Made by a program: the position numbers and the translations under genes. Positions 6,770 through 52,544 of a DNA stretch of 64,000 nt are shown here, one piece after another. Numbering within the stretch: the first letter of the stretch is position 1; each line of letters starts with the position of its first letter. The notes under the pieces are model-generated. The model was not told where the DNA came from and searched no databases. It worked only from the letters and a program-made list of their open reading frames with translations. This stretch comes from Pelagomonas calceolata. Lineage: Eukaryota. The stretch lies in assembly GCA_918797485.1 (NCBI GenBank), contig CAKKNE010000001.1:310001-374000 (forward strand). Direction: 5' to 3'.

Positions 6770-8574
6770 TTAGCGGACCCATACAGACCCAACACCCAGT
6801 CGATCGAGGGCCCCCTGGATCACGGACGACGCGCGCACGCCCATCGTGTAGGCCGGCTCGTCGTCGCGGATCTCCAGCCTTTGCTTCATGCGCCGGTTCC
6901 CGTTCAAGACTCCGCGAGAAGCCAATTCGTTCGCCGCCTCGTATCCAGAAACAAGAGCTCGTTCCTGGCACAAGCCCTTCGCGCCGTGCTCTCGAGACCC
7001 CATGCGCACCCAGTCCCCCGCGCAGCAGACGTTCTTCACCGAAGTAGCGAGGGGCGGCCGCTTCGAGAACGAGCCAGGCGAGAACCACGACACGGCGCCC
7101 TGGTAGCGCTTGACGCAGCTATCGACGACTTTGGCGTCCTTGAACCCAGCATAGGCCTCTGAGAGTAACTTCATCTCGAGCTCGACGATCGCTTGATCAG
7201 AAAGAGGCGCGATCGCACCCGAATTGTAAAAGTCCGCACTCAACACGGAACCCTGCACGTCATCATCACCCCACAACTCCTCCAAATTATCTTTCTGGAG
7301 CTGGTCCAACATAAAGAAGGTCCCGCCCGCGCCTGTGTGGAAATCAAAATTTTACGGCGCGTTTCGCGTCGACCTCCACGCCATCGACGCGACACCTCGA
7401 TGGCGTGGCGACAGCTCGACGGAACCAGAACGGCCGCGTCGTCGCCGAGAAATGACTTGGTCGATTTCCACACAGGTCTAGCACCGCGTAGCTCCGGAAA
7501 CTTGGCAAAAACGCCTACTGGTGTATCTGTCTTGACAGTACGATCGAGCCAGAGTCGCACGGCGACCACATCAATAGCGTTCAATGAGGCCGACGCTGCT
7601 AGGTCCGGCGCTGCCTTCGACAGCTCCGTAGAAGAAGCTAGGACGCGCTTCATGCCCCCTGCACCTAAAGCGAGCACGACGGCGTCGCAGGCCACCGAAC
7701 CCTCGCTCGTTTTTACGGACGTCACTTGCTCATTTTCGTACGTGAGTTGCGTGACGAACGTTCTCGGTTTTATTTTTACACCCATCTCTACTAATCGATC
7801 AGCTAGCGGCTTCAGCAAAGTCGTTTGGACCGTCCCACGAGCGAGCCATCGGACATCAAAGGACGTCTGGTGCGCCAAGGCGTAGAAGTACAACAGCTCC
7901 ATCGTGACGGCTGCCGACAGTTCTTCGGGCGGCTTGAACAACCCCACCAACAAAGTAGGCCTGAGAAAATCATCGACGAGTCGCTTCGTGACGCCGACGC
8001 GCCGAAAGAGCTCGTACGCCGTCATCCGATCATAAAGGTCAAAAATTTCCGGCGTTCTGTTGAAGTCGAGCATCGCCGCCAATAGTCCCGCGATCGACGC
8101 TCTATCTCTCAGAGGCAACCTCTTGAAGCGGTCGAACGACGCGAAGACCTGTCCGAGTGGGGAAGGTAGTTCCCTACTACCACTAAACACAGGAGCGGTG
8201 CATTCGAGACCATCGGGCGAGAAGAAACTGCTCTCCGTGAAGTCCGTGTACGCTCCCTCAATACCGAGCTCGTCTCCTAATTGATTGATGTTCGGGTAGT
8301 CCTTCCAGAAGCCCCTCATGCCGGGCTCGAACGGCTTGCCGCTGTCCGTCGTCATGCCGCTCGTCGGGTCGCCCGCATCAATCAAAGTGACGTCGCAGTT
8401 ATTTTCTGCCGCAGCCAATGCGGCGCCGAAGCCGCCCCAGCCGCCTCCCACAACTACGACCTTCGGCCTTGTCTCGGCTTCGGTGGTGGTGGCCATGCGG
8501 ACGACGGTGCGGCGCGGCGCCAGGCGCAGCGCGGTGGCTGTCGTCGCCAGGAGCAGTATTTGGTGTTTTGGCAT
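6770..8574 (-). CDS. FAD-dependent amine oxidase / carotenoid desaturase (PDS/ZDS)-like protein; exons 8574-7485 and 7332-6770
   Basis: GGGWGG Rossmann motif, AGDWV and QERALVSGYEAAN; removing intron 7484..7333 gives in-frame FPELRGAGGTFFMLDQLQ. Confidence 0.85.
7333..7484 (-). mobile_element. Introner copy 1 (152-nt GT-AG intron; element 7333-7475)
   Basis: TIRs ctgtgtggaaatc / gatttccacacag and core acgccatcgacgcg; TSD degenerate; splicing restores the frame. Confidence 0.85.
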
Positions 8575-9113: not shown

Positions 9114-10022
9114 ATGAAGCGCCTCTTCCGTCGCAAGAAAAAAGAAACGCCCCGCAAATCCAAGCCAGCGAGCATCTATTACTCGCCCGCCGCGGCGAGC
9201 ACGCCTACGGCGCTGCGCAGCGAGGAAGTTGCCGTTCCGCAGACGCCACAGGAAAGGGCGCTGGCCGACTTCGCCGCGGAGACGCCTCTCCAAACGCCAC
9301 CGACGCTGCGGACGCCCGTGCGCATGCCCAACGGCGGCACTAACCTCGATGGGGCGGACCTGCGCGACACGCTCGCGCGCGCCACCATCGACCCCGAGGC
9401 CAAGCGCCGCCTCGAAGCGTTGCTAGACCGCCTCGAGGCCGCGGAGCGCGCCGCGATGCAGACGCCCGTGAGGCGCCAGGTCTCCTGGGACCCCGCGACC
9501 GTCGAACGACCGCCGGTCGTCAGGGACGAGTCCTGGCGCAGCTTACAGAGGACGCCGTCGACGCCGACTACGCCTTCCAAACATTTGCTGTTAGCCTTCG
9601 GCCTCGACGACGCCGCGAATTCGCCGACCGCTAAACGGCGGCGGCGCGGCTACCTCTTCGCCGCGGGCGCCGTCGCGTTTGCTTGTGTGTTCGCCGGCGC
9701 GGCGCCGGCGCTGTCGCGCGAGTCGCGGCGCCGCGCCGCGCTGCGCCGGCCGCCCGAGCCCGTCGCGCCCTGTGTGGAAATCAAATTTCGGGCGCCCCAC
9801 GCCATCGACGCATACCGGTTGATGTCCACACAGGTCGCGCCCCTGGCCAAAGACACCGTGGCGGTCATTCGAGCGGCATGTCTGACGAAGAAACGGCCGC
9901 TCGCGCGGGTCGGTTGTGCGGCGCGGCTGACAATCGCTAGATTGCGAAAGCACATCGTCAAGCTCGTCGTCCTGGTTGTCATGGGCTTCTCGCCGCTGCC
10001 GTTCCTGCTGACATTTGTCTGA
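9114..10022 (+). CDS. Hypothetical membrane protein, interrupted by an in-frame introner
   Basis: 302-aa ATG ORF with hydrophobic segments; duplicated VAP...VAP around the insert. Confidence 0.6.
   Translation: MKRLFRRKKKETPRKSKPASIYYSPAAASTPTALRSEEVAVPQTPQERALADFAAETPLQTPPTLRTPVRMPNGGTNLDGADLRDTLARATIDPEAKRRLEALLDRLEAAERAAMQTPVRRQVSWDPATVERPPVVRDESWRSLQRTPSTPTTPSKHLLLAFGLDDAANSPTAKRRRRGYLFAAGAVAFACVFAGAAPALSRESRRRAALRRPPEPVAPCVEIKFRAPHAIDAYRLMSTQVAPLAKDTVAVIRAACLTKKRPLARVGCAARLTIARLRKHIVKLVVLVVMGFSPLPFLLTFV
9762..9833 (+). mobile_element. Introner copy 2 (72-nt GT-AG intron; element 9770-9833)
   Basis: Perfect 8-bp TSD gtcgcgcc at 9762-9769 and 9834-9841; TIRs present. Confidence 0.92.
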
Positions 10023-10094: not shown

Positions 10095-12502
10095 TTATTG
10101 CTTCGCCCTAAGAGCCTCCAGTTCCGCCTTCGCGGCATAAAATGCTCGGACGTCCTCGTTGTCGTCCTCTTCTTTGGGCTGCGACGACTGCGTGGGCGAC
10201 ACCGCGGACTGCGCGGGCGAGGCCGGCGGCGTCGCCCACGCGTTCGTCGGTTGTTTGTTGTGCCCCCTCCTTAAAACGTGGGCGTACCACTCGTCGTACT
10301 CCTTCTGCAATTTTTTCCGACCTGACTCCAACATTTTTTGCACATGCTCGATCTCAGTTTTTAAGCGTCTCAATGATTCAAAGTTCTGCTTGTAGACCTC
10401 CTTCTCCTGGGCGATGGCGTCGATCTTCCGCTGCTCCTCCGGGTCGGCCTTTTGGAGGTCGTCCTCATTGACCACTCCCTCTATTGCTCTTTCTCTACGA
10501 ATAGCCTCTATAGATTGCTTCAAATACGCAATGGCCTTCCGCGTGGCGTTGACCTTCTCGCCACACGCTTTGGCCTCACAGTATTTTTCTTTCAGGACGC
10601 GTTTGTTGTCCTCGAGGACGTGGGCTATTCTACATTTCTCGCGGAAATACAACCAAGCTCGTTTCGGATCGTCTCGCACCTCCGCATCGTCCACATAGAT
10701 GGAGACACCTGCCACCTCATCGGGCAACCGATGCTTCATCCTCGCGCGGTCTTCAGCTAACTGCTCCCGCGGGTCCAGCCGTCGGACAGGTTCAGCTTTC
10801 TTCTCTGACGAAGGTGGCGAGAACTCCTTCGCCTCGCTCGCGATGGAGGGCGTCGGCGCGGTCCCGCCGCCGCGCGCCTGGCGGACCATGTTCACCAAAA
10901 TGGCGATCTCGTTGTCGCGTTCTTTCAGAGTAGCTTTCAACTGCTCGTCCGTCGAGCCGCCGGTGCCTTGCGAAGCTAAAGCTTGGAGGACCATGTTCTT
11001 GAGCAGCGCGAAGCAGTCCCGGATGCGCGTTAACGTCAAGGGCGCGACGCGCAACGTCTCGTCCGGGTCCCGCGACTTCACGTAGACCTCACACGCACTA
11101 TGCAACTCAGCTCTTTCCGCATCGGTCAGCTCGTCGCCCTCGCCCGCTTCGCCCTTCAAGTAGCCGATCTCCGCTCGTAATGTCGAAACTTCGCTCTTCA
11201 ACCGTGCTATCGTGACGGAAGGATCCGTCTCTTCATTAAGGACAGCGTCGTTCTTCACCAGGGCCACCCGCTGCGCGAAGCGACACGTAGAGATCGACTC
11301 CTCGGTCTGGGGCTTCTCCGCGGAGCACGTCGCGATCATAACTGTTCTGCAGTTGCCTCCTAATGAATCTCTGAGAACGGAAGTCATCATACTGTTTCTA
11401 TAAGGAATGTGGTCCCGAGCTTTTTTGTTCTTCTCATTCAAAGCTACAATGACCATCTCGAGATAAAACAATGAGGTGTTGATGTACTTTGCCTCGTTGA
11501 GCGTGATGCCGTCGCTCTTCGTCTTGTGGACGCGCTCGGACCCCGCCAGGTCCACGAGATGTAATTTCGATCGGCGGACCTTGTCGGAGCCGCCCGCGCC
11601 CCGACATTCCAAAAATACGGTAAATAAACAATGGCTTCGGGACGACGCCTGGTTCATCGCGGTTTCACTGATGGCCCGGTTCGTGTCTCCCAAGAATAAC
11701 AAATTGAGGGCCTCCTCTTCACTGGTGGCGCGGTGCATGGAGAGGTTCCTGCGTGGACACGGTCTCGAAGACGCCATCGACGCGACAGCGTACTCTCCGA
11801 CGCGGTCCGAAACAGCTCAAAATCGAAAACGGGACCACCCACCGCCATCATTCCTGGAGACGAGTCGCGTCGATGGCGTAAGGCTCAATATCCACGCTGC
11901 GTCGCGGACCTCAGATGGAAGTTGCCGTGCTCGTCCTCCATCATGCGCACCCGCGGCAAATCTTGCAATGCTTTCGCTCCGGAAGATTCATTTAACAAAT
12001 CGAAGCCCTGCTCATTATATATTTCCATATACGACACATGGGCGGACCAGCTACAATCCGACCGTTCCCGAAAGGCCTGGAAGATCATACTGAGAGCTCT
12101 TGGTATTATACCTCTATCCTCATATCTTTCGGAACCACCAGTAATCGTGAAGGTCTTGCCCGAACCGGTCTGGCCATACGCAAACACGGTAGAGTTGTAG
12201 CCATCCAATGCGTTCTGGACGACGTGCTTCCCGACGCGGTCGAACACCTGCGCCTGCGAGATGTCCATGGGCAAGACCTGATCAAATTTAAAAGCCCACT
12301 GCGTCTTCGTGTTGTTGATGTACTCGCCGTCCTTGGTCACCGCGTCTGGGGGAATGTCCCACCTCAGACTTTGGCCCTTGCCCTCGTTGTCGCCCACGTC
12401 ATAAAACTTCGACGGGTGCTTCGTCGGGCGCATCCTTAAAAACACGGTGATGCCCTCCGATTTACGTTTCGGAGCGGCGTCATCCTTCGCCTCGGCCGGC
12501 AT
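10095..12502 (-). CDS. Kinesin-9 family motor (KIF6/KIF9-like); exons 12502-11910 and 11748-10095
   Basis: AYGQTGSGKT, NQASSRSH, LVDLAGSER, HIPYRNS motifs; spliced junction reads NFHLRNLSMHR; coiled-coil tail. Confidence 0.92.
11749..11909 (-). mobile_element. Degenerate introner-related intron, subfamily C (161 nt, GT-AG)
   Basis: Ends ctgcgtgga.../...tccacgctg, inverted pair of core motifs, body aligns with the intron at 60303-60443; splicing restores the kinesin frame. Confidence 0.75.
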
Positions 12503-12862
12503 CTTGCGTATGGGTGTCTGCTGCTACACGCTGCCCAGGGCCGCTCCGTCCGTGGGCAGTGGTCCCGAGCGCAGAGTCGTTGCGAGGCCTCGTGCGCGAA
12601 GGCCTATCGCGTGCCTGGCGGCTGCTGCGTGCGCGACGAGCAGCCCCAAAGCGGCCAGCCGGTGCGGCAGCTTTTAAGATGGCAGCACATCTGGGGGTCC
12701 TTCGCGGGCGACCGCGCGCGCGTCGCGCGGTGCGGCGATGGGAAAACGGTCGAATCAACGCCTGCTTTTTTAAATCGTCAAATTCGGGTTCGCGGTGGCC
12801 TGGCTGGCCTCCATGTAAAAAGGGAGCTTGTATCGACGCCATCGGGCTGCCCGAGGCTGTAA

Positions 12863-14041
12863 ATGATCCTCACGCAGTGCGCCGTCTGCGCCACCGAGCT
12901 TGGGCTAACCTTGGGCAAGAAATGCGGCCGCTGCAGCACGCGCTACTGCGGGCCTGAATGCCAGGTGCAGCACTGGAAGGAGGGCGGGCACGACCAGCTC
13001 TGCAAATTGATTAAAAAAGCTGGCGGCGCCGAACAGTATAATGCCAACACAAAGTACACGGAGGCAGTATCGGTCGCGGCGGAGGCGTGCGCGGAGGACA
13101 CGAAGGGCCAGACGTGCTACATCTGCACGCAGGCCCTCCATTGGAAGACGAAGGAGGGTCTCGTGCGCATGTGTGCGTGCCGCGGGACGGCGGGTTTCGC
13201 GCACGTGTCGTGCCTGGCGGAGCAGGCGAAGATTTTGGTCGCGGAAGTCGAGGAGAGCAATTTGGATCACGAGGCGAAGACTGAAAGGTGGACGCGGTGG
13301 TACACGTGCAGTCTGTGCGAGCAAGACTACCACGGCGTCGTGGCGTGCGCGCTCGGGTGGGCGTGCTGGAAGACATACTTGGGGCGGCCGGAGGAGGATG
13401 TGGTTCGGGTACTGGCGTTGAGGCAGCTTGGGAACGGTTTGCACGGTGGAGATCACGACAAGGACGCGTTGTCCGTAAGGATGGCCGAGTTGGCTATGCT
13501 GCGGCGCCTTGGCGCACCAGAAGCCAATATACTCGCCGCGCAGAGCAATCTTGCGCTCTCATATCGACAGCTTGGACGATTTGAAGAGGCCCTGCGTATG
13601 CAGCAAAAGGTATACTCTGGATCCCTGAGGCTCGAGGGCGAAGAATGTCCAAAGACCCTCGTAACAGCCCTGAACTACGCGTCGTCCCTTGTCCATCTAG
13701 GAGGCTTCGAAGAAGCCAGGACGCTGCTACGCAAAGAGATGCCCGTGGCGCGACGCATTCTCGGCGAGAGTAATGAGCTCACGCTCCAGATGAGGTGGAA
13801 TTACGCGAGGGCGCTCTACCTGAACGCCGGCGCCACGCTCGACGAACTCCGCGAGGCCGAGACTACGCTCAAGGAGACAGCACGGACCGCGCGGCGCGTT
13901 CTCGGTGCCGCAAACCCGGCTGTAGTGGGTATTGAGCACGACTTGCGAATTGCGCGAGACAGGCTCGCCGCTCGCGAAGGCGGCCGCGACGTGAGCTCCG
14001 TTTGCGACATGGTGGCCGCGATGACGCCCGGGGGACCGTAG
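12863..14041 (+). CDS. MYND zinc finger - RINGv - TPR repeat protein, copy A
   Basis: CAVC..CGRC...YC...CQ..HW....H...C (MYND); CYIC..CACRG....AHVSCL..C..C (C4HC3 RING-variant); TPR-like repeats (NLALSYRQLGRFEEAL). Confidence 0.88.
   Translation: MILTQCAVCATELGLTLGKKCGRCSTRYCGPECQVQHWKEGGHDQLCKLIKKAGGAEQYNANTKYTEAVSVAAEACAEDTKGQTCYICTQALHWKTKEGLVRMCACRGTAGFAHVSCLAEQAKILVAEVEESNLDHEAKTERWTRWYTCSLCEQDYHGVVACALGWACWKTYLGRPEEDVVRVLALRQLGNGLHGGDHDKDALSVRMAELAMLRRLGAPEANILAAQSNLALSYRQLGRFEEALRMQQKVYSGSLRLEGEECPKTLVTALNYASSLVHLGGFEEARTLLRKEMPVARRILGESNELTLQMRWNYARALYLNAGATLDELREAETTLKETARTARRVLGAANPAVVGIEHDLRIARDRLAAREGGRDVSSVCDMVAAMTPGGP
12989..13236 (+). repeat. 248-bp inverted repeat, arm 1 (partner 15276-15523)
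   Basis: Base-by-base identical, by eye, to the reverse complement of 15276-15523. Confidence 0.9.
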
Positions 14042-14432
14042 GCGAATCATTGGGGCGCGCCGCAGTCTAAACGCCACGGTACGCCATCGACGAGGCGCGG
14101 GCTCGTACGCCGCGCGAGGAGACATACTAAGATAAAGTTTTATATGGACACCGCGGGACGCTTCTCGCGGCGGCGCGGCGGGCCCGGGGGAGGAGGCCGC
14201 CGCGACCAAATAGGCATATGTGCACGACGTTCGCGATTGGGGTGGGGGGGGATAAGATAATGGGTCCGGTCCGTCGTGGTCCCGGGCCGCGGAGGCGGTC
14301 GGCTCGAGCTTTCTGGCGCGCGAGCCGCCGACTTGAGGCCTCAGTCAGGCTACGCGTTGTTTTTTCTTCGGCGACCGCTCGTAGGGCTCGGCCGCGAAGA
14401 CGTCCGTCAGGAGGCGGAACAGGTGGCGGCGG

Positions 14433-14489
14433 CGGCGGAGTGGTCCTGGCACCGCGACGCGGACGAGGACCCGTTCGCGACTGAGTAAA
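14433..14489 (+). repeat. Direct repeat, left copy (partner 15761-15803)
   Basis: cggcggagtggtcctg[14-nt insert]acgaggacccgttcgcgactgagtaaa. Confidence 0.85.
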
Positions 14490-14524
14490 GTATAGTGGAT
14501 TCTCTTAGAATGCGGGCGCGGACC

Positions 14525-15649
14525 TCAGGAGTCAGTGGACGATGCGAGCTTTCGCCGTGCGTGCGCGAGGTCTCTCTTGACGCCCGCGGCTACGGGATTC
14601 GAGGGCCCGTAGACCCGCTGCGCCGTCGAGGATAGCTCCTCAAGAAGAGTCGTAGCCTCGAGCACATCTTCTCGGGAAGCGCCAGTGTCGCAAAGAGAAA
14701 GGGCGTAATTCCAGCGAAGCTTGAAAAGTGTGTCATCTGCTGGACCGAGCGCGCGTCGTGCCTTGGGGAGCTGCTCTCGTAAAAATGACCTCGCCTCAGT
14801 GTGACGGTGTGTGTCGAGTAACGACTTGGAAAGGTTTAGCACGTCGATGTATAAGTCACCAGGATTTGCTACGTTAAGCCGCTTCGACGTGGCATAACAC
14901 TCGCGGCGTAATGCTAGGGCCTCCTCGTCACGCCCGAGTTCTTCTAAGCATACCGCAATGTTACATCTCGTGGCCAGCAATTCTTGCTCTGATAAGCCCA
15001 AGCGCATTTGAGTGGAAAACTGTGTCTGTTGGATTTGAAGCCGCTCCTCGTGACGCCCCGCATCCCCAAGTCCATGCGCAAGAACTCCTATCGCACAAGT
15101 CCGGATCGTATTCGAGTCCTCTGGCCGGCTCACGTAGGTCTTCCAGCACGCCCACCCGAGCGCACACAACACGACGCCGTGGTACTCTTGCTCGCACAGG
15201 CCGCACGCGGTCCACCGGGCCCACCTCGAATCCCTGATTTCGTAGTCCAGATTCCTCTCCTCTGCATCATCCACTAAAATCTTCGCCTGCTCCGCCAGGC
15301 ACGACACGTGCGCGAAACCCGCCGTCCCGCGGCACGCACACATGCGCACGAGACCCTCCTTCGTCTTCCAATGGAGGGCCTGCGTGCAGATGTAGCACGT
15401 CTGGCCCTTCGTGTCCTCCGCGCACGCCTCCGCCGCGACCGATACTGCCTCCGTGTACTTTGTGTTGGCATTATACTGTTCGGCGCCGCCAGCTTTTTTA
15501 ATCAATTTGCAGAGCTGGTCGTGGCCGCCCTCTTTCCAGTGCTGCTCCTGGCACGCAGGCCCGCAGTAGCGTGTGCTACAGCGGCCGCATTTCTTCCCCA
15601 AGGCTAGGCCCAGCGGGGCGGCGCAGGCGGCGCAGTGTGTGAGGATCAT
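14525..15649 (-). CDS. MYND zinc finger - RINGv - TPR repeat protein, copy B
   Basis: Same architecture as 12863..14041, with a diverged TPR C-terminus. Confidence 0.88.
   Translation of the reverse strand: MILTHCAACAAPLGLALGKKCGRCSTRYCGPACQEQHWKEGGHDQLCKLIKKAGGAEQYNANTKYTEAVSVAAEACAEDTKGQTCYICTQALHWKTKEGLVRMCACRGTAGFAHVSCLAEQAKILVDDAEERNLDYEIRDSRWARWTACGLCEQEYHGVVLCALGWACWKTYVSRPEDSNTIRTCAIGVLAHGLGDAGRHEERLQIQQTQFSTQMRLGLSEQELLATRCNIAVCLEELGRDEEALALRRECYATSKRLNVANPGDLYIDVLNLSKSLLDTHRHTEARSFLREQLPKARRALGPADDTLFKLRWNYALSLCDTGASREDVLEATTLLEELSSTAQRVYGPSNPVAAGVKRDLAHARRKLASSTDS
15276..15523 (-). repeat. 248-bp inverted repeat, arm 2
   Basis: Reverse complement of 12989-13236. Confidence 0.9.
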
Positions 15650-15760
15650 TTATACCGGCTTTGGAGACTTCTTGAGCTTGCGTGGAGACGGTATGAGGCT
15701 ACGGGCGTAGACGCCGATCGCGAGGCACCTTGACTTGCTAGTGTGTCTGACGCTAGCGAA

Positions 15761-15803
15761 CGGCGGAGTGGTCCTGACGAGGACCCGTTCGCGACTGAGT
15801 AAA
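15761..15803 (+). repeat. Direct repeat, right copy
   Basis: cggcggagtggtcctgacgaggacccgttcgcgactgagtaaa. Confidence 0.85.
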
Positions 15804-15825: not shown

Positions 15826-17873
15826 TTAAAACAACGAGGACCCTATCGCGCGCGCCATAGAACTCCGTCTCCGGATCTTCGGAGGCCGCTGCTCCCAAGT
15901 CCTAACGAGATCCTCCGGCGGATTCGCGGGCAGCTGGACGTCGGCGGCGCCATCCGCAAGGAGGCTATCGAGGTACCGAATCATGCGCAACGCGCGGCTA
16001 TCGCATCGCAGGTGCCGCGGCAGAACCCGAGACACGAGCGAGAGGCCCTCCATTGTCGTCGCGCGCGAGAGCGCCACGTACACCTGGCCGTCGTCGAAGG
16101 TCTTCGCAGGGTCGAACCTTACCTGTTTCAATCCCATGCCCTGAGATTTGTGGACGGACAGCGCCCAGGCGAGCCGTAGGGGCATCTGCCTCCGCCTCGC
16201 GACGCCGATACCCGCAACCTCCCGCTCGAACAACGTCGCCGTGACAATGACCTCTGATTGCCCCTCGAAGCGACAGACCGGCACGCGAGCGCCCTCAACC
16301 AGCCGATCCACGAGCCACGCCGCCGCGCAGCGGTCTCGACGCTTCACGTGGCTCTTCGCCGCCATGTAGTCATCGCGCGTGAACGGGGCCACGTCCACAT
16401 TCTGACTCATTGACGCCCCGGGCCGCCGCCACAGAGCGTCCTGTGCGGCTTTCGCGTTGCCGCCGCGGAGGGCCGTAGCTACCGTCCTCCAGACCTCGCA
16501 ATCTTCCGCGAGAGTCTCCGCGTCGGATATGGCGCGCGCAAACAGCTCGTCCGGCGTCGCCCAGCGGACGACCTCGCCTTGGGCGCCGTTGAAGAGCGAT
16601 GCTTTGGGGTCGACGTTGGCGAGCATTAGCACGCGGCACCCGACCTTGAGCTGTACCTCATCAATCGCCAGGAAGTCTTTGAAACAGTCGGATACGATAT
16701 CGACGGCGTTCGCTCGCGAAATTTTGTCAGCCTCTTGAAACAGGCAAACGGCGTCGGTCGCGGCCCAGGTCTCGGCAGTGCCCTCCAGCGCTCTGAACTT
16801 CCTGTCGTTCAGCGCATCGGCCTCGCGGTTGCGTGGAAATAACGTCAGGCCCGGACCCGCCGGTCGTAGGCAGTTCTCGTTGAGCTCCTCGCGATCAGAA
16901 GCGTCGCCGACGCGGATTCTGTCGAGAATTCCGCTGAAGACGCGGTCCGCCTGGCGGTAGCACTCCGTCAGCTTCACGTAGTGGAATCTCGCGTCCCAGA
17001 AACATCGCGCCTCGAAGCAGCGACCGCGGGCGCAGAAGAGGGGGCCCAGCTGATTTGTCACGTCCGCGGGATTATCGGCGTCGAACTCGACGCCCTGATC
17101 CGGCTCGTAACTATTCTCGATCGGCGGCAGCTGGAGGAGGTCGCCGCACGCGATCAGCTGGATCCCGCCAAAGGGCCTACTGTCGCCCCGCATCTTGCGC
17201 ACCTCCGCAGCGAGCCGATCCAAGAACTCGCCCGACAGCATCGACAGCTCGTCGATGATCAGATGTTCGAGCTCTCTCCAGAGCAGGGGAGCCTTCTCGT
17301 CGGGCGACAAACCGGGAACGTCCACGCGCTTCTCCCAGATGCGCCCGAAATCCCGCAGCTGCCCGGGCACGCCGACGCCCGCCGCGCGATGAATCGTCGT
17401 GCCGTCGACGTTCGCCGCAGCGATGCCCGTCGGCGCGACGACGGCGACGCGCCGATTAAACTTGTCTCCGTATTGTTTTCGGAACGGCCGATGATGAGGC
17501 GGGTGGTGAATGACTTGCCGGTCCCCGCGGACCCGGTATAGAACACGTTCTTTTTGTCTTCTAGGACCAAGCGGAGCACGCTTCGTTGCGCCGTGTTTGC
17601 AAACAGCAGGTTGCCGGTCTCAAAAGCGGATCCAGACGACGAATGTCGTGCCCTCTTCTGTGGCCGCGGCTGCGGAGGCGGTGGCGCCGATCGCGAGACC
17701 GGCGGCGGCACGGGCGGTGCAGGTGGCGGCGGCGGCGGCGCTACTGGTGGTGCACTTGCAGGCGCGGCGGGTGCCTCGTCGTCGGAGTTATCGATGTCTT
17801 CTCCTTCCTGCTGCTGAGGCACAGCATCAAGTTGGTCCTGGGAGTTCTCAATGGGATCATCAGTCAGTTCCAT
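15826..17873 (-). CDS. PIF1: PIF1-family DNA helicase (one frameshift near 17485)
   Basis: GSAGTGKS, then APTGIAAANVDGTTIH in a shifted frame, IIDELSM, PFGGIQLIACGDLLQLPP, QMPLRLAWALSVHKSQG, GQVYVALSRA. Confidence 0.88.
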
Positions 17874-24090: not shown

Positions 24091-25364
24091 TAAGGTGCCC
24101 GGTAGGCGTAGGCCGACACCTCGACGCTGCCGAGGGCGGTCCGGTGTCTGTACAAAAAGTCCTCGGGCCCCGCCGCCCGCCGCTCGGGTTCTACGCTAAA
24201 CCAGGACTTCTCGACGAGCGGCCGCGGCGCGCCGAGCGAGAACTCCGGGCGCGCGCCGAGGTCGACGACGCAGCCCCCGAGGAGCGAGTCGGCCATGTAC
24301 GTATTGCGCGAGTAGAACAGCAATTTGACCGTCGTCGCGCCGCGAGCCTCGAAGGTGAGCTCCTCGTTCCAGCAGGGCGACGTCGTCCGCCGCCGGCACG
24401 CCGTCTCGCGCGTCTGATCTCCATAAACCGCCCGCACGTAGGGGTGCGTCGCGCCGACGGCCTCAAACCCATAGCCGCCCCCAAACAGCCGCCGCGCGCG
24501 GTGCACCTTGACCACGAGTTTGTTCTTGCTCTCGTCCGGCGCGCGCGAGACTTCGACGTCGACTTGTTCGGAATCGATGGTCTCCTCGAAGCAGCTCGGC
24601 AGGAGGCAGCCCGCGGGCTCGTCGTCGACGACGACCACTCTGACCGGAGTTTCGCGCTGCTTCTTCGCCGAGAGCCGCTGCCGTCGCGGCCTGTGTGGAA
24701 ATCAAAATTTTACGGCACGTTCTGAATCGTCGCGTCGTCCTTCACGCCATCGACGCGACGCCTGATCGATGGCGTGGCGATGTCGGTTCCTCACCGCTCG
24801 ACGGAGCCAGCGCGGCCACGTCATTGCCGAGAATGACGTAGTGAGCACCTGACGCACTGGTTGATTTCCACACAGGCCGCGGCTTGCGCGTCTGCTCGAG
24901 CCGGTCGCGCGCCGCGGCGGCGGCTTGCACCTGGGGCCGCGCGGCCTCGGGCGCGACGAGGCCCGGCGGCGACGTCGGCGGCGTCGGCGTCGCAGGTGGC
25001 GCGAACGTCGCGTCCTCGAAGACGGCCGCCAGGAACGGCGTCGCCGCGGCCTCCTCGCGCTTCCGCCGCTCCAGCGCCCGCTCGGTCGCCTTGAGCTGCT
25101 CGCGCAGCAGCAGCGAGCTTCGGCGTCGTCGTCGTCGTCGTCCTCTTTTTCCGCTTCCGGCGGCGCGCCCTCTTCGTCCGGCGGCGGCCGCGGCGCGCGC
25201 GCGCAGCAGACGCGTTCCGCGGCCGGCCGCGCGGCGGCGCTGTCGAAGCCCAGCAGCGTGTTTGCGAGGGGCGACCCGCTGCGGGTGGGCTTCGCCTCCT
25301 CGGTGACGACGTGCGTCTCGACGGCGGGGCGGTTCGTCGCGGGGGCGAGGGGCGGGCGCTCCAT
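24090..25364 (-). CDS. C2 domain-containing protein (one introner; frameshifts in the GC-rich 5' part)
   Basis: LVVKVHRARRL...HPYVRA...PCWNEELTF...DSLLG C2 pattern; splice gives TRKPRRQRLSAKKQ. Confidence 0.65.
24691..24883 (-). mobile_element. Introner copy 4 (193-nt GC-AG intron; element 24691-24875)
   Basis: TSD gtcgcggc (24683-24690) / gccgcggc (24876-24883); perfect 13-bp TIRs; body aligns with copy 1. Confidence 0.9.
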
Positions 25365-25648: not shown

Positions 25649-28057
25649 TCATTTCTTCATGACGTTCCGCTGGAGCCACTCCAGCGCGCCCGCCTGCCAC
25701 CCGACCGGCATGCCGAACACGGATCCGGGCGCGGCGTCCTCGATCCGCGTCGCGAGGCGCACGCCCTGGTCGATGGCGCGCTTGGCGTCCAACTCGCCGG
25801 CGTGCTCGGCACCGCCGATGGCATACACTGGAAATTTTGGATCATTCCGGAGCTCGCGGAACAAGTCGTCGACGGACGTCTGGCCCGCGCAGAGCACGAC
25901 GTCCGTCACGTCGAGGACGCGCTCCGCGCCGGCCACTTCGATGCGGAAACCGTCGGCCTCGACTCGTTTATACGTCACGCCGCGCAGGAAGTCGACGCCG
26001 CGCTGGCGCAGCGCCTTGCGGTGAATCCAGCCCGTCGTCTTGCCCAATCCGGCGCCGAGCGGCGTCGCCTTGCGCTGGAGCAAGTACACAGTCCGCGGCG
26101 GCGCCACATTCGATGGCTCAGCTAAACCCGAGCCGCGCGGCGCGGTGTCGACGCCTGTGTGGAGATCAAATTGTCGCGGTGCTTCGAATGAGCGTACCCA
26201 ACACATTGGTTGCTTTCTACACAGGTCGACGCCCCACTCGCCGTAGAAGTCGTCGCCCGAGCGGTGCGTGAGGAACTCGGACACGTCGAATCCAATCCCG
26301 CCCGCGCCGACGACGGCGACGCGCGGGCCGACTTTTGTCGCGCCCGAGAGCACGTCGGCGTACGAGTGGACGCGGACGTTCGCCGACGACGCGAGGCCCT
26401 CGACGACCCGCGGCCGCACGCCCGTCGACACCACTACCCTATCAAAGTCTTTCACGGTCGACGCATCCACATACGTATTCAACCGCACATCCACAGAATG
26501 CACGTCGAGCATCGTGCGAAAGTAGCGCAGCGTCTCCCAGAACTCCTCTTTGCCCGGCACCGCCGCGGCCAGCAGGAACTGGCCGCCCACCCGTTCCGAT
26601 TGCTCGAACAGCGTCACGCGGTGGCCCCGTTCACCGAGAGCGCACGCCGCGCTCAAGCCCGCCGGCCCGGCGCCGACGACGGCAACCTTCAGAGGCGTCG
26701 CCGTCCTCGTCAACTCGAGCGACGTCTCGTGGCCGGCGCGCGGGTTGACCTGTGTGGATATCGAATTTCGGGCGCCCCACGCCATCGACGCGACGTCATC
26801 CTCGTAATTGCGTCTGCTCGACGGCGTTCACTGTTTGATTTCCACGCAGGGCTTCACCAGGCACGACACGGGCATCATCTTGAAGGTATGATCTAAACAA
26901 GCCTGGTTGCAGGCAATGCACGTATTGATCTCATCCTCCCTTCCATGAAAGGCCTTCTCGATAATGCTAGAGTCGGCGAGGAAGGGCCGCGCCATGGAAA
27001 CGACGTCCGCACCTTGCTCCAGCACGTCTTCGCACGTTTCGGCGCTGTTGATGCGGTTCGTGGCGCACATGAGCGGTGCTTGCCCGTACTTTGATAACAA
27101 AGCTTCTCGCACATTAGTAGTCGCAAACGCGAACGCACCTCTAGGAACACAAGTGGCGATCGTCGGCACCCTAGCTTCGTGCCAGCCGATGCCCGTGTTG
27201 AGGATGTCCACACCACAAGCATCCAACAAATGAGCTAGCTCGACGACCTCGCCGAAGGCCATGCCGTTTTCAACTAATTCCAGCATGGACAGCCGGAAGA
27301 CCACCGCAAAGTCCGGGCCCGCGGCTTTTCTTACGGCTTGTACCACGTCTAGAGCTAAACGACTCCGGTTCTCGAAGGACCCGCCATACGCATCTCCCCG
27401 TTGATTCGTGCGCTCGGCCAGGAACTCGTTTATCAGATAACCCTCCGAGCCCATGATCTCCACACCGTCGTAGCCGCAGCTCCTCGCTAGCGCTGCCGTG
27501 CGCGCAAAGTCGTCTATAGTAGATTGTACGTCTTTTTCTGACAAAGCCCGCGGCGTGACCACGTTAATTGGTGCCTTCTTCTTGGACGGAGCGACGGCGA
27601 AGGGGTGGTAGGCGTACCGTCCCGCGTGTAGTATTTGCAAGGCGATCTTACCGTTGTTCTCGTGGACCGCATCAGTAACGACTTTGTGCTCCTCGGCCTC
27701 GGCTACAGTCGACATCTTGCCCGCGAGCGGCAGCACCCAGCCTTCCCTATTGGGAGCCACGCCTCCGGTAACAATGAGTCCAGCACCGCCTTTCGCGCGT
27801 TCCGCGTAGAACGCGGCCATTTCTTTGAGGCCTCTGTGCTCTTCCAAGCCGGTGTGCATCGAGCCCATCAAAGACCGGTTCCTGATTTCAAGGCCGCACG
27901 GCAAGGTGAGGGGACTGAACAAGCGCGGGTACGTGGCGTGCGGCTGCTCCGCGGTCGAGGAGCAGAAGGGCGCGTCGTCGTCGTCGCTGCGCGGCAGGGC
28001 GGAGAGCGGCCTCGCCGTTGCGCGCCGGCCGCCGACGGCGGCGAGGCGGCGGAGCAT
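25649..28057 (-). CDS. fadH: 2,4-dienoyl-CoA reductase, FadH-type (OYE barrel + 4Fe-4S + FAD); exons 28057-26858, 26749-26233 and 26154-25649
   Basis: MGSMHTGLE, EIMGSEGYLINEF, CIACNQACLDH, SCLVNPRAG after splicing, GAGPAG, LGKTTGWIHR, ELDAKRAI; Arg-rich transit peptide. Confidence 0.93.
26155..26232 (-). mobile_element. Introner copy 5 (78-nt GC-AG intron; element 26155-26224)
   Basis: Perfect TSD gtcgacgc at 26147-26154 and 26225-26232; TIRs with a few mismatches. Confidence 0.88.
26750..26857 (-). mobile_element. Introner copy 6 (108-nt GT-AG intron; element 26750-26849)
   Basis: TSD gggttgac/ggcttcac (6/8); removal restores the conserved CLVNPRAG. Confidence 0.9.
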
Positions 28058-39194: not shown

Positions 39195-41574
39195 ATGGAC
39201 TCCATCCTGCAGAACCTCTCCCACAAAGCAGAGCCATGCGCACAGAAGGATAGTACCGTGGCGCCGCCGCCGCCGCCGCAGCGCAAGCTGACGATCCGCC
39301 TCCCGGTTGGGTCGCATAATTCGTGTGAAGCCGCCGCCTCGACCGCGCCCCAGAAGGACGTGGACGCCATCCTGAGGAACCTGGCCGGCTACCGGCCGCC
39401 GCCGCCCGGCCCGCAGCTCTTTGGGCCGCCGCCCAAGGCCCGCGCCAAGCCCACGCTTCAGCGGACGACGCCGCGCGCGCCCGACGCGGGCCCGCTGCCG
39501 TCGATCCTCGAGCTGCTCGAGCAGCACGTCGCCGCCCGCCCGACGAGCGAGGCGCCGCCGACGGCCGAGGAGACCCTCGCGGCGCTGGGCGCGCCCGGCG
39601 ACGATGAGGCGCCGCCGACCGCGCCGCCGACGGCCGAGGAGGCCATGGAGGCGCTGGGCGCGCCCGGCGACGATGAGGCGCCGCCGACCGCGCCGCCGAC
39701 GACCGAGGAGGCTATGGAGGCGCTAGGCGTGCCCCGCTACGTCCGAGACGCTCTGCGGGCGCCGCCGACGGCCGAGGAGGCTACGGAGGACGTCCGAGAC
39801 GCCCCGGCGCCGCCGCCGCCCGCGCGGAAGAAGCGGCGGCTGAGCGGCTTCGGCAGCACCCCGAAGTTCCCCGCGAAGCTCTTCGAGATGGTCTCGCACC
39901 ATTCAAATGTTATTACTTGGGAAAACGGCCGCCTCGTCGTCCGCGACCAGGCGCGGCTCTGCGCCGAGCTCATGCCGCGGTACTTCACGGTCAAGACCGG
40001 GACGGCGACCTTCCCGTCCTTCGCGCGCCAGCTCAACTACTACGGGTTTTCAAGAGCGAAGACGGGCGCGGACCTCGCCTACGTGCACCCGGGCGTGGCG
40101 AAGGTCGAGGACCTCGCGACGCTGGCCCGCAAGGACGAGCCGGCGCGGAAGAAGCCCAAGGCGTCGGAGGCCGTCGAGGTCGTTTCTCTGGAGGAGCACC
40201 GCCGCGTCGTCGCGGAGCGCGATATGTTAAGGGAGGAGGTGTCAAAGCTGCGCAAGGCCCTGGCGCAGGCCGAGGCCGCGCTGCCAATCCACACGGCCGA
40301 GGCCGTCCGCCAGGGCGACCGGCCCGATCCACGCCTCTACTTAGCCGACTCAGCAACCAGTAAAGATGTCTGCGCCTTTTGTGGGAAGCATCATGGCACG
40401 CCGAACGCCGACGGCACGCTCGAGGGTGATTTGCTGTTCCCGCCCTTCCGCGGGAACGATGGGAAGCCGGTCTGGGTCCACGCGCAGTGCGCGTTGTTTA
40501 GTGCCGAGGTCCACGGCGAGCGCGAGGGCGACCTGTACAACGTGTTGGCTGCGGTCAAGCGGGGCCGGTCGTTGAAATGCGCCGCGTGCGGCGAGCGCGG
40601 CGCGACGGTGGGCTGCGGCGAGAAGCGCTGCTCGAAGTCCTTCCATTTGAGATGTGCTGCGGCCCACGGGCTGTTGCAGGGCGAGACGACGTTCCACTGC
40701 CGGAAGCACGCGAGTTGGCCGGACGCCGTGCAGTGCGACCGCTGTTTTAAATGGAGAGCCTGGGACTGTGTGGAAATCAAATTTCGGGCGTCTTACGCCA
40801 TCGACGCGACGTGCTTTCCGTAGCTATCAACGCGACTTTGTCCCCGTGGCCGCGTCGGCTCGATGATGTGGAGGTTCAGGATAACCTAACTCACTGTTGG
40901 TTTCCACACAGGCCTGGAAGACCGTAGATAAAACGACGGGGCGGCCCGCTCCTTTGCCTGAGGGCGACTGGTTCTGCGAGCTGAACGAAGATACGACTTG
41001 TAATAGTTGTGAAGTGAAGGCATCAATTACGTCGCCCGAGGCCGTCGAGCCCGACCGACGGGGCGACGCGGTCGCCATTGAGGGTCAAAAGTGCGCGTTC
41101 TGCCTGTCTCCGTCGTTATCCTTACTTGAATCCAAGGCGCCGGGCGGTTTGTGCACGAGGCCACTGAAAGACGGTCCCAAAAGTGTCTTCCACCACGCGG
41201 CCTGCCTGGCGCTCGCGCCGGAGGTCGTGCGGTCGGGCGGCCACGTCTTCCGCGGGCTGAGCGCGTTGCGGCGCGGGCGCCTGCTCAAGTGCTTCTCCTG
41301 CGGGAAGCGCGGCGCCACGGTGGGTTGTGGCGTGAAGGAGTGCCCGCGGAGCTTCCACGCGCCCTGTGCGTTATTCAGATCTGGAGGCTGCGTCGACGAG
41401 GGCAACGGCGAGTCGTCGAACGTCTTCTACTGCAGCGCGCATCGTAACAAAGGGACGGACCGGTGGGTGTCGTGCAGCCACTGTAGCGCGTGGCGGCGCT
41501 GGAAGGGCCCCGTCGACGCGACGGGCGGCGAGCGTTGCTGGCGCCCGACGCGCAGCCAACCTGTGCGGAATTAG
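39195..41574 (+). CDS. HSF DNA-binding domain + extended PHD + CW zinc finger + second ePHD/CW protein; exons 39195-40757 and 40912-41574
   Basis: FPAKLFEMV..VITW..FPSFARQLNYYGF (HSF); WVHAQCALFSAEV..C..CGERGATVGC...C.KSFHLRCA (ePHD, twice); VQCDRCFKWR..WFCELN..C (CW). Confidence 0.85.
39545..39790 (+). repeat. Coding tandem repeat (EAPPTAPPTAEEAMEALGAPGDD, about 66-bp unit)
   Basis: Visible in both DNA and protein. Confidence 0.8.
40758..40911 (+). mobile_element. Introner copy 9 (154-nt GC-AG intron; element 40766-40911)
   Basis: TSD gcctggga/gcctggaa (7/8); removal restores the CW finger KWRAWKT. Confidence 0.92.
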
Positions 41575-51300: not shown

Positions 51301-52544
51301 CTAGAACGCCGCGAGCGACGACTGCGACGCCGTCCGTAATGGCGGCGCGGCGAAGCGCTCGCGCAGCCACCGCACATAAGGCCGCTCGACGTGGACCTCG
51401 TACAGCGCCGCCAGCATATACAGCGTCAACGCGAAGGCCACGAAATTCTCCGCGTGATCGCTCGTGGGCAGGCCGAGGCCGTAGAAGACGGCGTGGACGG
51501 GCCACTGGAAGAGGTAGACCTCGAAGGAGCACTTGCCGATTGATGACAAAGCGGGATGGGCAAAGAGTTTTGATGCTTTCGAGGCTGCGGCCGTGTCGCG
51601 CGCCGCCGCCCACAGAAATACGGCGAAGAGCGGCGCTAGCCCGTGGTCGTACAGGACCTCGCCGTGCTCGCGGTAGTCCAAGTGCGGGTTCGGGACGAGG
51701 AGCACGGCGAGCGTTATGATGAAGACGGCGCCGTCCGCGAGCCAAGCCGTGTTTTCTCTTGACGAGCGAGCCGCGAGCTCGGCACTGACGCAACCCAACA
51801 GAAAATCCGCCAACTGCGCCGGCGGCCAGAGGTAGAGCGCCGTGTGGGCGGAATTGTTGAAGTAGGCGCCCGCTCTCAAGCCACCGGAGACGAATAGCAA
51901 CGCTATCAAAGACGGTACGATTGCGAGGACGACCGCCACGACCATCAAATGCCGTCGCTCGTAGAGGAACGGGTCGTAGAGCACCGGATAGAGGAGCCAC
52001 GACGGCGCAAGGGCCGCGACCGTCCAGGACTGGCCGTCGGGGCACCACCGGTTCGGGGACCGCCACCTGTGTGGAAATCAAGTCGCGTCGATGGCGTGGG
52101 GCGCCCGACATTTGATTTCCACACAGAACGCCACGGTTCTACGAGAAACGCACAAAGCGTCAGGTGCATCGCGTCCAGGTCGCCGTTCCCACCCAGATAC
52201 AATAGGATAGCGGACACGCCCATGGCCAGCCACACCGCCAGGAGCACGCGGCCGAAGCGCCGCCCGTACCAGCGCTTGGCGTCAGGCCAACGATTCGCCG
52301 ATTGCGAGAATTTACCGCGCGCCGCCCAGTGCGTCACAAAACCGCTCAGCACGATGAAGTAGTCCACGGCGCAGTTGCTCCGCCAGAGGCTCTTTACCAA
52401 CGGGCCGTCGCTCGAGTGCGGTAAGAAGTGCTGGCACACGATCCAGAGCGACGCTAACCCGCGCGAGCCGTCAACAAAAGGTAGGCGCTTGCGCGGCGGC
52501 TGGGTCTCGGCGGTGGGTTGTTGCGGGATGGCGTCGTAGGCCAT
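51301..52544 (-). CDS. Acyltransferase-3 (OafA-like) membrane protein; exons 52544-52135 and 52066-51301
   Basis: DGSRGLA...H, AVDYFIVLSGFV, RRFGR, SWT, IGKCSFEVYLFQWPV, VERP. Confidence 0.88.
52067..52134 (-). mobile_element. Introner copy 10 (68-nt GT-AG intron; element 52067-52126)
   Basis: TSD accgccac/aacgccac (7/8); perfect 15-bp TIRs; removal restores VEPWRSPNRWCPDGQSWT. Confidence 0.92.

Follow-up and report, generated by a model that had tools for sequence, protein, structure and literature searches.

The closest described counterparts of the genes analysed here are candidate immune receptors whose sensors are tetratricopeptide repeats (TPR). In the brown alga Ectocarpus, the available part of one report lists 24 NB-ARC-TPR genes with one exon per repeat, together with ROCO-LRR candidate receptors (PMC3341825); the available part of another places the variation of fungal NLR TPR repeats on their concave face (PMC4986451). 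We analysed a pair of neighbouring genes, A and B, that join MYND and RING-CH fingers to TPR, in a stretch of 64,000 nucleotides (nt) from Pelagomonas calceolata (contig CAKKNE010000001.1, positions 310,001 to 374,000); this stretch is the window, in whose coordinates positions are given. As far as those partial accounts go, the family of A and B resembles the Ectocarpus genes in occurring in a stramenopile alga, in having TPR under diversifying selection, and in high birth and death and shuffling, but it likely comprises 100-200 intronless genes with N-terminal MYND and RING-CH and no NB-ARC. With the fungal receptors it likewise shares kinesin-light-chain-type TPR, variable binding-face sites and exchange between members, whereas it has no nucleotide-binding domain, its repeats are not near-identical within a gene, and repeat number looks fixed.

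Other parallels are looser. TRIM5-type restriction factors and the nematode F-box and MATH-BTB proteins form expanded families that couple a conserved ubiquitin-system module with a binding module under positive selection; domains and lineage differ, and only the logic is alike. RING-CH E3 ligases (Doa10/MARCH) share the C4HC3 ligand order, but the present family has Gln for a Trp, 31 hypervariable residues between ligands 6 and 7, and MYND and TPR joined to the finger. In bacterial shufflons, such as that of R64, inversion links a 5' part in frame with a different 3' part, as an inversion would at our locus; here the window frames scanned yielded no recombinase, there are no silent cassettes, and long coding homology takes the place of short sites. 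The Saccharomyces flip/flop region holds inverted paralogs homogenised by recombination across a 4-kb repeat, in the available part of its description (PMC9731477). It is like our locus, to that extent, in its homogenised inverted paralogs and in an interval invertible in principle without a dedicated recombinase, and unlike it in that here the repeat is 0.25 kb, the partner was recently inserted, and one orientation is seen.

The core shared by genes A and B

Gene A (12863..14041, plus strand, 392 amino acids, aa) and gene B (14525..15649, minus strand, 374 aa) are intronless and lie tail to tail, with start codons at 12863 (+) and 15649 (-); each is a complete open reading frame (ORF) with its own ATG and upstream region. 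Pfam finds zf-MYND, RINGv and TPR_12/TPR_10 in both, with RINGv above its cut-off of 21.6 bits in B (23.6) and below it in A (20.1). On the plus strand of A, the MYND finger (PF01753; aa 6-47) occupies 12878..13003, the RING-CH (C4HC3) finger, with ligands C85, C88, C104, C106, H114, C117, C149 and C152, occupies 13115..13318, and an array of 42-residue kinesin-light-chain-type TPRs (aa 173-372) occupies 13379..13978.

The initial annotation reported that 12989-13236 is identical to the reverse complement of 15276-15523, and we confirm this, with 0 mismatches over 248 nt. Aligned from their ATGs, the genes stay in register without an indel across 410 nt; mismatches number 17 over the first 126 nt, 0 over 12989-13236 (against 15523-15276) and 11 over the following 36 nt. 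The flanking divergence noted earlier therefore holds on both sides, at many sites in the first ~125 bp and strongly in the TPR halves, which are 48-50% identical in nucleotides. Together the A and B arms, 413 nt at 93%, form the longest inverted repeat of the window. The core does not coincide with a MYND-RING domain block. It encodes aa 43-124 (12989..13236, plus strand, in A, where it is native to the lineage of this locus) and runs from the end of the MYND finger to mid-RING, ending at the start of the family's variable loop, before C149/C152.

An identity of this length is exceptional in the family. When 85 family genes are compared in 3570 pairs, the longest exact tract per pair is 35 nt at the median and 74 nt at the 99th percentile. 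Nine pairs have an exact tract of at least 100 nt: five join genes 98-99.9% identical, three are other mosaics, and the last is A/B, whose overall identity (68%) is the lowest of the nine. The A/B core identity is real in the assembled sequence and far above the family background.

Gene B as an insert and as a mosaic

More than 575 wild loci match A, and we compared the 80 best of them with the locus. Synteny with the window is found in four (L004, L017, L019 and L021), the anchors being a kinesin KIF6/9 gene on the left (10095..12502, minus strand) and a PIF1-like helicase open frame on the right (15826..17619, minus strand). All four have an A-type gene, the positional ortholog of A, and gene B is seen in none of these four syntenic contigs. 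In L004, L017 and L019 the site is empty: the intergenic sequence runs into PIF1 with a single copy of a stretch that is doubled in the window. L021 has a larger deletion at B's site. In the window, a 1271-nt insert (14490..15760, minus strand), in which B is preceded by 111 nt and followed by 35 nt, lies between target-site-like direct repeats of 57 nt (14433..14489, plus strand) and 43 nt (15761..15803, plus strand); the right one is 14 nt shorter inside, and the two show 0 substitutions over 43 aligned nt. The doubled stretch is the end of a remnant of a DJ-1/PfpI gene, whose 3' end is at 14411..14489 (plus strand; PF01965, E 1e-6 in L004). Beside it lies the 3' end of a cyclin-like gene (14345..14408, minus strand), a remnant that is longer in L004 (Cyclin_C E 5e-4, below the cut-off). 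We had considered the direct repeat to be a duplicated PIF1 intron acceptor, and dropped this when the wild contigs showed the DJ-1/PfpI remnant end.

The junctions of B's TPR with the interval and of B's 5' end with PIF1 both occur on 0-difference contigs of runs X1-X4 (four runs from three studies), and the insert thus cannot be put down to a single assembly; one run-X3 contig covers 13492-15162 with 0 differences. Gene A is thus resident at the locus and B is a lineage-specific insertion. B would have been copied in from another locus during break repair. A transposable element was rejected as its vehicle, flanking repeats of at least 18 nt being found at only 4 of 57 genes (B, L063, L065 and L018), two of them known tandem copies. 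Upstream motifs shared by family genes were likewise rejected as element ends, because they also precede other window genes, and a link to Helitrons was dropped when Pfam showed no Rep/HUH family on the PIF1 frames. The PIF1 of L017 (2350-2680) has a longer C-terminus, BRCT-like by eye, where the window copy (15826-15900) stops early. The region between A and PIF1 (14045-14490) carries a different deletion in each lineage (the window, L004, L017, L019 and L021).

B itself is a mosaic of four segments, all on the minus strand. Segment 1 (aa 1-42, 15524..15649) resembles the wild protein P0139, which has B's 5' end, at all seven sites (aa 5-35) that differ from A. Segment 2, the core (15276..15523), is A-like at all eight sites (aa 49-86) that differ from P0139, and is the likely conversion patch. 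Segment 3 (~aa 125-191, 15077..15275), comprising the RING loop and linker, is again of P0139 type, through aa 189. Segment 4 (~aa 192-374, 14528..15076) is a TPR of P0121/P0138 type, unlike that of P0139, and belongs to a rare, divergent subtype with 14 matches among 2485 candidates. Two linker types and two TPR types occur among wild relatives of B, in every one of the four possible pairings. A metagenome contig scan with B's TPR gave no relative among 285 pattern matches, so the wild B alleles are known as proteins only.

Which way was the core copied? Among 181 comparable proteins, the A-type set of core residues is limited to A, B and P0124, a second genomic copy on another chromosome-size contig in which an A-type core lies between B's 5' end and B's TPR, and apparent frameshift errors follow. 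Besides B, the nearest core to that of A is in the syntenic L021 (0.927), and L019 (0.907) is within the top four. Since the core residues are so restricted and A's core is nearest to those of its syntenic orthologs, A is the likely donor. The 5' end of A is 97% identical to that of L004. Thus B has a donor-type patch with recipient-lineage sequence on both sides and A keeps its native sequence, a pattern that, on sequence comparison, would be the mark of gene conversion. We conclude, with a probability of roughly 0.8, that the core of B is a recent one-way gene-conversion patch copied from the resident A; the explanation offered earlier as the conservative one is supported. In the mechanism we propose, non-crossover repair between inverted paralogs 2 kb apart would overwrite B's core, and the tract would end where the variable RING loop breaks homology.

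The second copy has a counterpart in the annotation. The available part of the genome paper's data has kinesin followed by two family genes and then PIF1 on both contig 1 and contig 5, and a 393-kb duplication is described (PMC9481584); the repeated gene order is consistent with that duplication. Contigs specific to the locus are roughly twice as deep as paralog contigs in runs X2 and X3 and not in X1, a weak hint of a segmental duplication that is not in every sample.

Several points weigh against the conversion reading. First, its direction rests on one wild protein, P0139, compared at the amino-acid level and possibly itself recombinant. Second, no contig of runs X1-X4 spans a core, so identity and orientation rest on the assembly. 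Third, the 80 wild loci are biased to A's clade, and the wild contigs belong to lineages that have diverged (flank identity 70-93%) and were assembled from metagenomes, where repeats may give rise to chimeras.

Other accounts of the shared core

The A-type patch might instead have been made during the insertion of B, in one event, the repair polymerase switching template to A and back. Patch and insert both look recent, given the absence of any difference in 248 nt of core and of any substitution in 43 nt of target repeats, and the 14-nt loss in one repeat may suggest error-prone repair. Two frame-keeping template switches are needed, however, and nothing separates such an event from later conversion; we regard it as unlikely.

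The in-register inverted identity also invites a comparison with yeast, in which ordinary homologous recombination would occasionally invert the 2039-nt interval between the cores (13237..15275) and leave both orientations in populations, for which the accessible account of the Saccharomyces region gives a precedent (PMC9731477). A possible ectopic exchange of this kind is seen in L046 (697-850), where L006-type upstream sequence passes into an L037-type gene body and downstream flank within a 23-nt stretch of the MYND/core region, unless this is an assembly chimera. The repeat here is 0.25-0.41 kb, against 4 kb in yeast, and both of the two assembled copies are unflipped, the second keeping B's 5' end with B's TPR beside PIF1; the left part of the interval is oriented as in the wild contigs. 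B is absent from the syntenic wild contigs seen, and no protein joins A's 5' end to B's TPR among the 14 TPR matches and the relatives of B, most of which lack a 5' end. More generally, a crossover can use such an identity but cannot create it, and the composition of P0124 argues against a flip as well. We consider this account quite unlikely. An opposite-strand joint, 13237-15206, was examined as a flip junction and rejected, because it skips 69 nt and has paralog-level depth.

As for what a flip would achieve, the initial annotation was correct that the geometry allows TPR tails to be exchanged in frame, but only the promoters and seven MYND residues would change, and no new TPR would arise. 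Nor is inverted pairing the family rule. A second member occurs at 4 of the 80 wild loci, three head to tail and one (partial) tail to tail, with only 26 of the 80 having 1.5 kb downstream; a tail-to-tail partner is therefore seen at 1 of 80. The two comparable neighbour pairs have exact tracts of only 29 and 48 nt. The partial tail-to-tail partner is that of L048, 2.7 kb away; L048 and L049 carry near-identical family genes in one assembly, with downstream flanks that diverge after ~500 nt, which is a recent duplication.

A polishing or collapse artefact, in which reads from A displaced B's own core during assembly, is very improbable. The locus does lie in a duplicated region and polishing was imperfect, as seen in the apparent frameshifts of P0124 and at 12725-12744, where the window departs by 6 letters and 4 gaps from the contigs of each of runs X1-X4, probably because of an error in the local assembly. 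Yet P0124, separately assembled and error-bearing, shows the same A-type residues at 8 of 8 sites, which argues against short-read overwriting, and a genuine B core should be ~10-15% different from that of A, enough for read mapping normally to separate the two. A 136-nt look-alike contig over B's core has an X3 depth of 14.5, against 27-34 at the locus, and is paralog-like, depth being a weak measure.

The programmed, shufflon-like cassette for swapping TPR tails that was proposed at first is hardly credible, even though the geometry permits in-frame swaps: B is a lineage-specific insert bearing an A-type patch, both genes are complete with no silent cassette, the second copy is unflipped, inverted pairing is not a family habit, and no recombinase or integrase was found in 84 of the window's 125 listed ORFs (those of at least 170 aa, Pfam E 1e-5).

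The family, its selection and its putative function

Taken by itself, a 248-nt patch is nothing unusual, in contrast to the family. Its named homologs are P. calceolata proteins on several chromosome-size contigs, and of 7998 scored candidates 2931 pass E 1e-10, mostly from metagenome collections; the best 120, A itself excepted, are 65-75% identical. In supplementary file 4 of the genome paper, as far as it is available, at least 126 rows carry RING-CH and at least 198 a MYND profile, and at least 95 and at least 80 P. calceolata genes have their best NR match to two proteins that recur for the family (PMC9481584); 19 and 5 rows of these two sets were inspected. The family likely numbers 100-200 dispersed MYND-RING-CH-TPR genes of 16,667, an estimate from annotation rows and not a count. 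Searches combining Pelagomonas with MYND or tetratricopeptide, which did not extend to subscription journals, found no paper on it; the main text of the genome paper, in its available part, lacks the term 'zinc finger', and its supplementary table gives per-gene domain labels (PMC9481584).

The family changes fast. In the four contigs syntenic with the window, the TPR of A has 53.5-59.5% aa identity and its N-terminus 91-97%; the kinesin has 86-99.6%, and PIF1 86-93% in three contigs and 58% in L017. Among 45 pairs sharing flanks, TPR identity is at the paralog level (0.67-0.76) in 38 and ~1.0 in 4, with no value in 3. Family mosaicism, which had been suggested as a check, is indeed present, in the linker and TPR combinations and in other mosaic pairs, and the conserved 5' third would serve as a general recombination handle that reshuffles the family, not as a programmed switch. 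Between L014 (2020-3144) and L015 (3641-4765), TPRs are ~100% identical and flanks 86-87%, either a recent gene-body transfer or a co-assembly chimera.

The contrast between a conserved N-terminus and a variable TPR, for which an immune-like E3 family was proposed, is clear in the ratio of nonsynonymous to synonymous divergence (dN/dS). By pairwise counting over 78 genes (7 of the 85 were dropped: near-duplicates, partial genes and B), dN/dS is 0.15 in MYND, 0.12 in the core, 0.35 in the linker and 0.65-0.68 in TPR. Nonsynonymous divergence per site (pN) exceeds 0.5 at 38 of 200 TPR sites and at 1 of 124 N-terminal sites (77 genes). When the top 40 sites were picked in one half of the 77 genes, dN in the other half was 1.18, against a four-fold-site distance of 0.37; over 20 splits the held-out ratio was ~3.15 (2.98-3.35). 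The MYND and RING parts are under strong purifying selection, and amino-acid change is in excess at TPR sites. Distances in the N-terminus do not correlate with those in the TPR (rho -0.05, against 0.28-0.52 in odd/even-codon controls).

In a structure model (mean predicted local distance difference test, pLDDT, 79.9), the TPR fold matches kinesin-light-chain-type TPRs, including those of Podospora (4y6c/4y6w). With helices assigned from this model, the hypervariable sites concentrate in the first helix of each pair (28 of 85 sites, against 7 of 77 in the second; Fisher p 2e-4). First helices of TPR pairs line the binding groove. This fits the published account of the fungal repeats (PMC4986451).

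Among 12 long proteins sharing this TPR type, Pfam finds a kinase in four, CHAT in three and NB-ARC in one. In A and B, a Pfam scan to E 1 gave no NB-ARC or NACHT, and the 392 aa of A are filled by MYND, RING and TPR; the family likely consists of variable TPR sensors that carry MYND-RING-CH where NLRs have their switch. The eight RING-CH ligands are near-invariant (77 genes), and the variable loop precedes the last two. The finger's best match among solved structures is Doa10, a weak one (E 0.045). In RING-CH fingers, a Trp four residues after the sixth ligand contacts the E2; at that position, where Doa10 has Trp, the family has a near-invariant Gln121.

The giant-virus bin G002 holds, in a 7.1-kb contig, an intact family member with 65% identity to A, which recurs with the same neighbours in an 89.9-kb contig (L083/L084; L084:10001-11242). 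Bin G002 has VLTF3 (E 1e-48); A32 was looked for there and not found. The viral member has a third-position GC content (GC3) of 0.67, against 0.33-0.47 in eight neighbours and at least 0.68 in host-type copies, and a quick tree of 68 rows nests it within the host-type family; in that tree, P0148 was marked viral by inference only (82% to the viral copy, 138.7-kb contig). Its cluster has eight members, one labelled as from a bacterial bin, and that protein is the best NR match of at least 80 P. calceolata genes. In a related giant-virus bin, G001, the RING part of the family is fused to unrelated sequence in a 681-aa ORF (L085:8033-10078); capsid and PolB families were not found in that bin, the capsid search having no positive control. 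Viral context, host-like composition and nesting in the host tree together point to a host gene captured by a giant virus. Near the viral member lies an ATP-dependent DNA ligase with an inserted U-box domain (L084:6642-8138).

To our knowledge, almost nothing is established about virus recognition by abundant open-ocean picoeukaryotes. P. calceolata is a very common and culturable ocean alga, and the family provides concrete candidates for host-virus recognition. Judging from architecture, selection and viral capture, its products are most likely putative variable substrate sensors joined to a ubiquitin-system finger and used against viruses: the TPR groove would bind foreign, likely viral, proteins and the RING-CH would recruit the ubiquitin machinery. 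We can only tentatively extend this to an undescribed immune repertoire, in which ~1% of Pelagomonas genes would encode TPR-sensor RING-CH ligases, with grooves selected and reshuffled by conversion through the 5' handle, alleles outpacing the neighbouring DNA, giant-virus proteins ubiquitinated, and the viral copy acting as decoy or counter-ligase. On that view, the locus would show a receptor soon after its birth by insertion and its patching from the gene next door.

Here too there are points on the other side. The RING is modelled poorly (pLDDT < 50, aa 79-116) and the Trp of Doa10 is absent, so that ligase activity is only putative. Selection was assessed by counting, with neither codon model nor recombination correction, on metagenome assemblies among which chimeras may occur, and the pN > 0.5 cut-off of the helix comparison was chosen after the data were seen. 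It is accordingly possible, at well under even odds, that the structural account holds and the family is not antiviral, its TPR diversity being used for mate or self/non-self recognition, in a selfish conflict, or for many endogenous substrates. Diversifying selection names no selective agent, and the invariant Gln may mean no ligase activity at all; on the other hand, two related giant-virus bins contain family sequence, one an intact copy and the other a fused RING fragment, and the pattern fits the TPR sensors of fungal and brown-algal immune candidates. RNA-like runs X6-X14 hold a share of words of 0.48-0.69.

Elsewhere in the window, a dispersed repeat family occurs in both orientations (7331-7397, 9768-9811, 24689-24763, 26750-26799, 40766-40819 and 52073-52136), which resembles pelagophyte introner elements. 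Introners are mentioned in the available part of the genome paper (PMC9481584). A PHD/HSF gene carries four in-frame tandem copies of a 69-nt unit at 39552-39789.

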